Of a DNA stretch of 52,961 nucleotides, positions 25,747 to 26,396 are shown one piece after another. Source of the DNA: Escherichia phage mEp013; sequence record PP180002; one strand, 5' to 3'. The translations under genes and the position numbers were made by a program. The notes under the pieces are model-generated. The model had not been told where the DNA came from. It worked only from the letters and a program-made list of their open reading frames with translations, and ran no database searches. Within the stretch, counting starts at the first letter, position 1; each line of letters opens with the position of its first letter.

Positions 25747-25821
25747 ATGATTGACCCGCTCATTATCCTTTCTGCCTGCGTCGCTGTATGGCTGGCGATC
25801 ATGATATTCATTGAAAGCTGA
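25747..25821 (+). CDS. mini-protein 1 of tandem array (24 aa, single TM)
   Basis: MIDPLIILSACVAVWLAIMIFIES; RBS GAGG. Confidence 0.45.
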   Translation: MIDPLIILSACVAVWLAIMIFIES

Positions 25822-25832
25822 AGGTTCTCATC

Positions 25833-25907
25833 ATGAATATTTACGATCTAATCTGGTGGTCGGTGGTCGCCGTCATTATCTATTTCTGGTGGAAGAATGT
25901 CGTATAG
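25833..25907 (+). CDS. mini-protein 2 of tandem array (24 aa, single TM)
   Basis: MNIYDLIWWSVVAVIIYFWWKNVV; RBS AAGG. Confidence 0.45.
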   Translation: MNIYDLIWWSVVAVIIYFWWKNVV

Positions 25908-25915
25908 GTGGCGGC

Positions 25916-26023
25916 ATGGATATATTCGAATTGCTGGCGATTATGTGCGGAATGATGTTAGGCACTGTCGCCATAATTATCATCATTGGTCTGGTTATAG
26001 GTAGTGTCAATGAACGCATATGA
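25916..26023 (+). CDS. mini-protein 3 of tandem array (35 aa, single TM)
   Basis: MDIFELLAIMCGMMLGTVAIIIIIGLVIGSVNERI; RBS AGGTGG. Confidence 0.45.
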   Translation: MDIFELLAIMCGMMLGTVAIIIIIGLVIGSVNERI

Positions 26024-26090
26024 AATGCTATTACTGGTGGCTGTAGTTGTAGTCATTGCCGTTGATTTCTATCGAGGGTTTAAAAGATGA
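26010..26090 (+). CDS. mini-protein 4 of tandem array (26 aa, single TM)
   Basis: MNAYEMLLLVAVVVVIAVDFYRGFKR; weak RBS; overlaps neighbours. Confidence 0.35.
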   Translation: MNAYEMLLLVAVVVVIAVDFYRGFKR

Positions 26091-26158
26091 AAGAAGCAGA
26101 CTTCTTTTGCATGGTTGTAGTGATCGTTATTATTGCGGTGATTTTAAATCTTAGCTGA
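26087..26158 (+). CDS. mini-protein 5 of tandem array (23 aa, single TM)
   Basis: MKEADFFCMVVVIVIIAVILNLS; RBS GAGGG; ATGA overlap. Confidence 0.45.
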   Translation: MKEADFFCMVVVIVIIAVILNLS

Positions 26159-26175
26159 ATCGCAGGGGGTTAAAA

Positions 26176-26244
26176 ATGAAATGGCTTGATTTCTTTTTCC
26201 TGATTGTTGCGATTGTTCTAACCATGACCGCGCTTGCTCAATAG
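26176..26244 (+). CDS. mini-protein 6 of tandem array (22 aa, single TM)
   Basis: MKWLDFFFLIVAIVLTMTALAQ; RBS AGGGGG. Confidence 0.45.
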   Translation: MKWLDFFFLIVAIVLTMTALAQ

Positions 26245-26303
26245 GTTATGGCTTGGACGCGCATTTTATGCGCTTCCTAAATTAAGTAAGTCAAATAAAG
26301 TGG

Positions 26304-26396
26304 ATGGTAACAGTGAAAGAGCTATTCGACTGGTTGGAAGTATTAACATACTGCGCAAGTTTTGTGGCTTGCGTATATATCATCAATAAATATTGA
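26304..26396 (+). CDS. mini-protein 7 of tandem array (30 aa, single TM)
   Basis: MVTVKELFDWLEVLTYCASFVACVYIINKY; alternative GTG start at 26313. Confidence 0.4.
   Translation: MVTVKELFDWLEVLTYCASFVACVYIINKY

Follow-up and report, generated by a model that had tools for sequence, protein, structure and literature searches.

The small terminase subunit gene terS of Escherichia phage mEp013 (sequence record PP180002) is preceded by a chain of open reading frames (ORFs) so short that standard annotation misses them, and the question raised by this locus is whether they are genes and, if so, what peptides of this size could do for a phage. The sequence analysed, hereafter the window, is the whole stretch of 52,961 nucleotides (nt); within its positions 25747-26396 lie seven mini-ORFs in a row on the + strand, encoding 22-35 amino acids (aa) each. 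An earlier note, made from the letters of the window, had described them as an array of paralog-like single-helix membrane peptides situated between an HNH endonuclease gene and terS. Comparison with related phages revealed that the array is a hypervariable cassette locus common to the whole phage group, a point that the earlier note overlooked. Judged by their sequence and its variation, the seven ORFs are probably real, translated genes for inner-membrane micro-proteins that serve as accessory modulators.

Seven consecutive mini-ORFs upstream of terS

All seven mini-ORFs were confirmed on the + strand and are given below, with the letters of the peptide families to which they belong, the Shine-Dalgarno (SD) sequences and the energies of the anti-SD duplexes.

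25747..25821, + strand: mini-gene 1, family B, 24 aa, MIDPLIILSACVAVWLAIMIFIES; SD GAGG, -5.9 kcal/mol
25833..25907, + strand: mini-gene 2, family E, 24 aa, MNIYDLIWWSVVAVIIYFWWKNVV; weak SD AAGG, -3.5 kcal/mol
25916..26023, + strand: mini-gene 3, family J, 35 aa, MDIFELLAIMCGMMLGTVAIIIIIGLVIGSVNERI; SD TAGGTGG, -5.8 kcal/mol
26010..26090, + strand: mini-gene 4, family A, 26 aa, MNAYEMLLLVAVVVVIAVDFYRGFKR; weak SD, -4.1 kcal/mol
26087..26158, + strand: mini-gene 5, family G1, 23 aa, MKEADFFCMVVVIVIIAVILNLS; SD GAGGG, -6.4 kcal/mol
26176..26244, + strand: mini-gene 6, family C, 22 aa, MKWLDFFFLIVAIVLTMTALAQ; SD GGGGG, -10.1 kcal/mol
26245..26312, + strand: spacer between mini-genes 6 and 7, 59-68 nt; site of cassettes F, H, G2 and K in relatives
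26313..26396 (GTG start) or 26304..26396 (ATG start), + strand: mini-gene 7, family M, 27 aa, MKELFDWLEVLTYCASFVACVYIINKY, or 30 aa, (MVTV)KELFDWLEVLTYCASFVACVYIINKY

A scan for ATG-initiated ORFs of 20-60 aa containing a hydrophobic 15-residue window found seven of them in a 660-nt stretch, and the maximum among 3000 dinucleotide-preserving shuffles was three. The remaining 52 kb of the + strand yielded 15 such ORFs, that is, ~0.19 expected per 660 nt. The array region is T-rich (~39% GC), and an origin of the ORFs by chance or composition was rejected on the strength of both the shuffles and the window-wide background rate.

The anti-SD duplex energies ranged from -5.8 to -10.1 kcal/mol for ORFs 1, 3, 5 and 6 and for ORF7 read from GTG, and were weaker for ORF2 (-3.5) and ORF4 (-4.1); the median over all 1100 ATGs of the window was -2.4. 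Thus, the statement of the earlier note that most of the ORFs possess their own SD holds, except that ORF2 has to be added to ORF4 as weak. The start of mini-gene 7 is most likely GTG 26313 (-6.8 kcal/mol) rather than ATG 26304 (-0.9 kcal/mol), and the position of this GTG is occupied by ATG in most relatives.

Successive ORFs are spaced by -14 to +18 nt. Mini-genes 4 and 5 overlap by ATGA, which is the sole junction of this kind in the window array and not one of several as had been claimed; mini-genes 3 and 4 share 14 nt instead. The SD of mini-gene 3 overlaps the stop codon of mini-gene 2, and the stop codon of mini-gene 7 falls inside the SD region of terS.

The array is a hypervariable cassette locus of mEp021-group coliphages

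The window is closely related to the non-lambdoid temperate coliphages mEp021, mEp044, mEp010, mEp554, mEp515 and MagusPhagus, so the lambdoid setting assumed in the earlier note has to be replaced by the mEp021 (mEpimmI) group. This group has been described as prevalent in the human gut (PMC11893012). Prophages of the mEp021-like kind were found in 35 of 5426 complete E. coli genomes. We compared 55 loci, taken from six phages, four E. coli prophages and 45 IMG/VR contigs that contain both anchors, as well as from the window. Throughout these loci, the interval between terS and an upstream gene encoding an HExxH-motif protein measured 318-1154 nt and was filled by mini-ORFs of 20-47 aa, with a median coverage of 80%. 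The peptides cluster into ~20 families whose succession along the slot does not change (I/L/N/Q, D, P/O, B, E, R, J, A, G1, C, F, H, G2, K, M). Each locus holds 2-12 cassettes, and 39 architectures were distinguished among the 55 loci, the window being B-E-J-A-G1-C-M. Family M is the sole family present in 55/55 loci, followed by A (53/55), B (52/55), C (51/55), E (37/55), G (36/55) and J (27/55).

Alignment of the BEJA, BEA and BA arrangements showed that entire cassettes are gained or lost, with breakpoints in the spacer between SD and ATG, while the other ORFs stay intact with their SDs. Family J, for example, is missing as an entire cassette from mEp044 and mEp021, and the 68-nt junction from C to M recurs in other loci. 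Natural knockouts were also detected: families H and E both occur without their start codon, E is found frameshifted as well, and D and B are fused in one case; the knockouts of family E, to which mini-gene 2 belongs, are the loci L014 and L025. These results demonstrated that the ~20 peptide types form a family which evolves in a single slot of the mEp021-group coliphages through duplication, recombination and cassette-precise gains and losses, and that the array is a fast-evolving accessory module.

Two further relatives were informative. In L057, whose upstream protein is 49% identical, the same holin, lysozyme, spanin, terS, terL and portal families are present with no array, and the upstream gene ends 3 nt before terS. 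Together with the natural knockouts, this locus showed that the array is dispensable. In L060, whose upstream protein is 62% identical, the architecture is B-E-A-C-F-H-M and the peptides are identical or nearly so to those of the window, that of mini-gene 1 being unchanged. Such near-identity despite a diverged flank indicates that the array moves between backgrounds. Searches of IMG/VR with terS, with the upstream protein and with a degenerate family-B DNA pattern detected no array outside this phage group, and none was present in Sf6/HK620-type phages, whose terS is 38% identical.

The fusion occurs in L015 (2230-2412), where a change of 1 nt puts cassettes D and B into one frame, giving a predicted protein of two helices (...RWLEGKMIDPLVILS...). 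This could be a natural example of the assembly of a larger membrane protein from micro-gene cassettes. Separately, six relatives (L009, at 1938-2138, and L018, L027, L029, L036 and L055) carry between M and terS a very acidic, non-hydrophobic ORF of ~47 aa (MNDEELKIADEIRKALDSAENNETIYLSEQEVEKMM...), which is a different cargo type in the same slot.

The mini-ORFs are under frame-specific purifying selection and are spaced as coupled genes

The earlier note had tied its proposal to conservation of the reading frames in relatives. The frames are kept in the 55 loci, and all distinct DNA variants were compared within each family. The polymorphic sites were distributed over the three codon positions as 137/85/231. 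The ratio of nonsynonymous to synonymous polymorphism (pN/pS) in frame was 0.30 when pooled and ranged from 0.12 to 0.46, with purifying selection in 15/15 families (B, 0.30; E, 0.38; J, 0.15; A, 0.26; G, 0.46; C, 0.13; M, 0.27), whereas the two other frames gave 0.54-3.24 (~1 pooled). On the same loci, pN/pS was 0.11 for terS and 0.08 for the upstream gene; purifying selection on the mini-genes is thus real but about three-fold weaker than in the flanking core genes. Synonymous diversity was 0.30 in the mini-genes and 0.39 in the flanking genes. These comparable values gave no sign of extra constraint at the DNA or RNA level. Taken together, the substitution patterns support the assignment of the mini-ORFs as genuine protein-coding genes.

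Across the 55 loci, the distances between successive ORFs cluster at -8, -4, +4/5, +8 and +11 nt, and the stop codon of one ORF often sits inside the SD of the next one (for instance TAGGTGAnnnnnATG). This spacing fits what is typical of translational coupling. The mini-genes form a single chain, co-oriented with the HExxH-protein gene and terS/terL. No convincing or conserved promoter and no strong terminator-like site was found in the array or around it, and promoter-like sites were fewer than in shuffles. Two weak + strand hairpin matches, at 25854-25875, both lie inside mini-gene 2, and the TTGACA of a single minus-strand promoter-like match (26010-25982) is not conserved in relatives.

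The predicted peptides share an acidic head and one hydrophobic core

All seven window peptides contain an uncharged hydrophobic core, 13-26 residues long, with Kyte-Doolittle maxima over 15 residues of 1.9-3.6. The summed insertion free energies were below 0 for all seven and marginal for E, A and M. The short acidic head described in the earlier note was recovered in six of the seven, the exception being ORF6 (K2 and D5, net 0). About 15 of 19 families combine a net acidic head of the form M-x(1-4)-D/E, an uncharged core mostly of 15-19 residues, and a neutral or basic tail. These features support the prediction that the window ORFs encode peptides with a single hydrophobic helix, for which the acidic head and the neutral or basic tail predict an N-out/C-in topology by the positive-inside rule. 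The sequence L-S-A-C in family B was not counted as a lipobox, and a lipoprotein reading was rejected, because in relatives the -1 position can be L or V, and because of the acidic head.

The likeness among the peptides was borne out in part. In a shuffle test that is partly confounded (see below), 17 of 190 family pairs reached p<=0.01 against 1.9 expected from composition-matched shuffles. The similar pairs are G1/C, E/A and J/A inside the window (ORF5/ORF6, ORF2/ORF4 and ORF3/ORF4), of which the first makes mini-gene 5 a paralog of family C, and A/O, E/O, C/G2 and N/I outside it. No notable DNA-level repeats were found in the array, so any duplications must be old.

The array peptides gave no match in Pfam, PHROGs, NCBIfam or PADLOC, and none of the seven in the window was present in a collection of 15 billion proteins. 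Curated toxin families gave no hit for any peptide in Pfam (E<=1) or NCBIfam (E<=10), the PADLOC defence-system models gave none at E<=10, and no holin family in PHROG or Pfam matched the seven. Family K (47 aa), which is not in the window, was weakly similar to one holin PHROG (E=0.04). When the peptides were concatenated and searched against 5.8 billion proteins, only read-through translations of the same array were retrieved, and no polytopic protein. These read-through 'proteins' (P0142-P0146; 139-176 aa) come from short ENA/Logan contigs and carry W at the TGA stops of the array; they are apparently an annotation artefact of a code that reads TGA as Trp, which hides the real mini-genes. 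In the RefSeq/GenBank records of relatives, the slot is mostly blank or called as artefactual longer frames. The literature search found no description of the array, and the paper on this phage group (PMC11893012) does not mention these ORFs.

Proposed role of the micro-proteins and alternative explanations

On the reading that we favour, the micro-proteins would be made late in lytic growth along with the packaging genes. A chain of 22-35 aa would still be inside the ribosome tunnel at termination, and membrane insertion would then have to be post-translational. The peptides would insert into the inner membrane N-out/C-in, like the Pf3 coat protein, and could act as accessory modulators through helix-helix contact with other membrane proteins or through perturbation of the membrane. 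As to what is modulated, we tentatively prefer a conflict module that may exclude competing phages or neutralise membrane-embedded host defences, because the extreme presence/absence polymorphism is the pattern of arms-race loci. Tuning of lysis or of membrane energisation comes next, as a possible though rather doubtful role. Similarly speculative is a combinatorial form of the idea, in which a recombination-prone slot would generate, duplicate, shuffle and discard transmembrane (TM) peptides of 20-47 aa, each jamming a different membrane target; possible targets would be the DNA-entry machinery of rival phages and the TM effectors or sensors of host defence systems. These readings and the explanations that follow can coincide in part, and the likelihoods given to them need not add up to one.

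Several points weigh against this reading. The proposed mechanism is drawn from composition, position and evolutionary pattern only, with no homology to characterised proteins. Several cores, with 13-17 uncharged residues, are short for a bilayer-spanning helix, and the insertion sums of E, A and M are ~0. The paralogy test is partly confounded, since shuffling also destroys the shared layout of head and tail. Selection within families is purifying, not diversifying. A place in the late operon with no promoter of its own would be atypical for prophage-expressed exclusion genes (morons). Upstream of the HExxH gene there is also a weak hairpin, annotated in mEp021, that resembles a terminator.

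If the peptides belonged to the lysis clock, as holin-, antiholin- or pinholin-like helpers or as depolarisers tuning the timing of the holin-endolysin-spanin cassette ~1.3 kb upstream, one would expect them where they are, downstream of the lysis genes and in the same transcriptional direction, and their small size, their single helix and the weak holin-like similarity of family K would agree with it. Precedents of several small TM genes beside lysis cassettes exist in Gordonia phages (PMC9671378) and in LydA-D of P1 (PMC9025707). But a 336-nt non-coding stretch with the terminator-like hairpin, and then the HExxH gene, separate the array from that cassette; L057 lacks the array although it shares the holin, lysozyme and spanin Pfam families; the phage group has its own PF16080 holin while the seven window peptides hit no holin family; and 2-12 interchangeable peptides are not expected of a clock, which leaves this explanation unlikely, if conceivable. 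The earlier note had also suggested poisons like those of type I toxin systems, each peptide forming pores or depolarising the membrane for host shutdown in the manner of Ibs, ShoB, TisB or BsrG. Size and composition are similar to those of such toxins, and one family-D peptide, from outside the window, is labelled 'toxin' in a metagenome annotation (DAL44984.1). We regard this as improbable: even permissive E-values gave no toxin-family hit in Pfam or NCBIfam, no conserved antisense promoter accompanies the ORFs (the sole minus-strand match is the one not kept in relatives), the genes are coupled in an operon and are not stand-alone repressed modules, and 7-12 toxins in tandem would be redundant.

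Two further explanations assign no function to the peptides. In one, the chain would serve only to keep ribosomes on the late mRNA, either to protect it from Rho or to pass coupling from the upstream gene on to terS; T-rich DNA would yield the hydrophobicity as a by-product. The tight coupling distances, the stop codon of the last ORF in the terS SD, the T-rich composition and the fact that the universal family M is the least hydrophobic all suit it. We give it little credence, since every family is under purifying selection at the amino-acid level, near-identical peptides occur where the flanking protein is only 62% identical, the design of acidic head and hydrophobic core is conserved, composition-matched shuffles yield no such ORF sets, and a relative couples the upstream gene directly to terS. 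In the other, the ORFs would not be genes at all and would mark a cis element (pac/cos or a structured RNA), the debris of a frameshifted polytopic membrane protein, or chance. The position next to terS is a frequent one for cos or pac, and a run of seven hydrophobic stretches that switch frame could pass for a broken multi-pass protein. A cos-like element, which the earlier note had itself raised, and a structured RNA were rejected, as terS is of the Sf6 type, i.e. of headful packaging, no Rfam match and no meaningful repeats were found in the array region, synonymous diversity is not reduced, and the slot varies from 2 to 12 cassettes and is empty in L057. The broken-gene origin was likewise rejected by the concatenated-peptide search, and frame-specific selection and the shuffles exclude chance, so that we consider a non-genic origin extremely improbable.

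The locus is under clear selection and is among the most variable parts of its phage group. Its ~20 related peptides, with their presence/absence variants and their natural knockouts, make up a compact natural system in which three questions can be tested, namely the role of ultra-small membrane proteins in infection, their insertion, and the origin and turnover of micro-genes. If the peptides are exclusion or anti-defence factors, they would form a new class of very small effectors; and if the combinatorial cassette idea holds, the array would be a membrane-phase counterpart of anti-CRISPR and anti-defence islands and a natural nursery for near-de-novo genes.

Comparison with known systems

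Small phage membrane proteins as such are already known; what is new here is an unannotated, hypervariable, tightly spaced array of micro-genes. Among the peptides of type I toxin systems, Ibs (18-19 aa), ShoB (26 aa), TisB (29 aa), Ldr (35 aa) and the prophage-borne BsrG/TxpA are alike in length, in their single very hydrophobic helix and in their occasional multiple copies, and the heads of BsrG/TxpA (MxxYESLM...) resemble the array heads MNAYEML... and MNIYDLI.... The array differs in that no antisense RNA gene or promoter of its own was found, its ORFs are coupled in an operon, and no Pfam or NCBIfam profile matched. The bacterial inner-membrane regulators AcrZ, MgtS, MgrB, PmrR, KdpF and CydX are single-helix proteins of 29-49 aa that bind larger membrane proteins, which is the mode proposed for the array peptides; they are, however, encoded by single chromosomal genes and have known partners, whereas the array is phage-borne, multigenic and hypervariable, and its peptides are shorter. 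The Pf3 coat protein (44 aa) has an acidic N-tail, one hydrophobic helix and a basic C-tail and inserts N-out/C-in in a YidC-dependent manner. It provides a topological model for post-translational insertion of the array peptides, but it belongs to the virion structure of a filamentous phage and has no homology to them, and the virions of the tailed mEp021 group have no membrane.

The groups of small, holin-like TM genes found next to phage lysis cassettes, as in Gordonia and Mycobacterium phages (PMC9671378, PMC13056207) and LydA-D of P1 (PMC9025707), resemble the array as tandem small membrane-protein genes near lysis genes that are co-oriented with the late genes and vary between related phages. 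Their products are typically ~60-150 aa with 1-4 TM domains, and 2-4 genes lie inside the lysis cassette. In contrast, the array has 2-12 genes for 20-47 aa, is placed beyond a non-coding gap and one gene, abuts terS, and shows no sequence similarity to them. In temperate phages of enterobacteria, the hot spot for cargo or 'moron' genes that lies between the lysis module and the packaging module, as exemplified by lambda bor (PMC3594210), occupies the same genomic niche and has accessory, dispensable content with a mosaic distribution. Morons are autonomous, with their own promoter and terminator, and are expressed from the prophage, whereas for the array cassettes neither element was found and they are chained to the late genes at coupling distances.

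Neighbouring genes and other small ORFs

The genes that surround the array are as follows.

24724..25257, + strand: HExxH-motif gene, 177 aa, PHROG 1365 (unknown function); left boundary of the array in all relatives
25244..25729, + strand: HNH_3 + AP2 homing-endonuclease gene (Pfam HNH_3, 5.5e-20); not part of the array
26408..26893, + strand: terS, Sf6-type small terminase subunit (Pfam PF20901, 2.3e-37); right boundary of the array
26896..28374, + strand: terL, large terminase subunit (Pfam Terminase_6C, 2.2e-13)

The earlier note had placed the array between the HNH gene and terS; the proximity of the HNH gene proved coincidental. DNA similarity to every relative starts exactly at 25746/25747, so that the gene is an insertion private to this genome. 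It takes the place where relatives hold cassettes I/L/N/Q and D, and it has rearranged the 3' end of the HExxH gene in the window. It was rejected as a packaging partner, being a homing endonuclease that no other genome carries at this site. A similar HNH gene occupies another site in L060 (2752-3273), between lysozyme and Rz.

The protein encoded at 24724-25257 carries an invariant H79-E80-x-x-H83...H87 motif and a long C-terminal helix rich in K, A and E. It had no Pfam hit, and its AlphaFold2 model (pLDDT 81.7) gave no significant match to a PDB fold in Foldseek. One metagenome record labels a homolog 'PolyVal metallopeptidase', and the motif together with this third-party label offers a lead to a putative metallopeptidase. 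Between the spanin gene and this gene lies a conserved, apparently non-coding stretch of 336 nt (24388-24723), which might delimit the late transcript or be a small RNA; the hairpin annotated as a terminator in mEp021 corresponds to ~24618-24652 of the window.

In the early region, a second set of small hydrophobic ORFs was observed on the + strand, at 12486-12599, 12608-12730, 12740-12805 and 14457-14549 (37, 40, 21 and 30 aa). Those of 37, 40 and 30 aa are kept in mEp554 with conservative changes, the DNA being ~85% identical, and PHANOTATE calls them as hypothetical proteins. These ORFs suggest that the phage encodes more small membrane proteins than those of the array alone.

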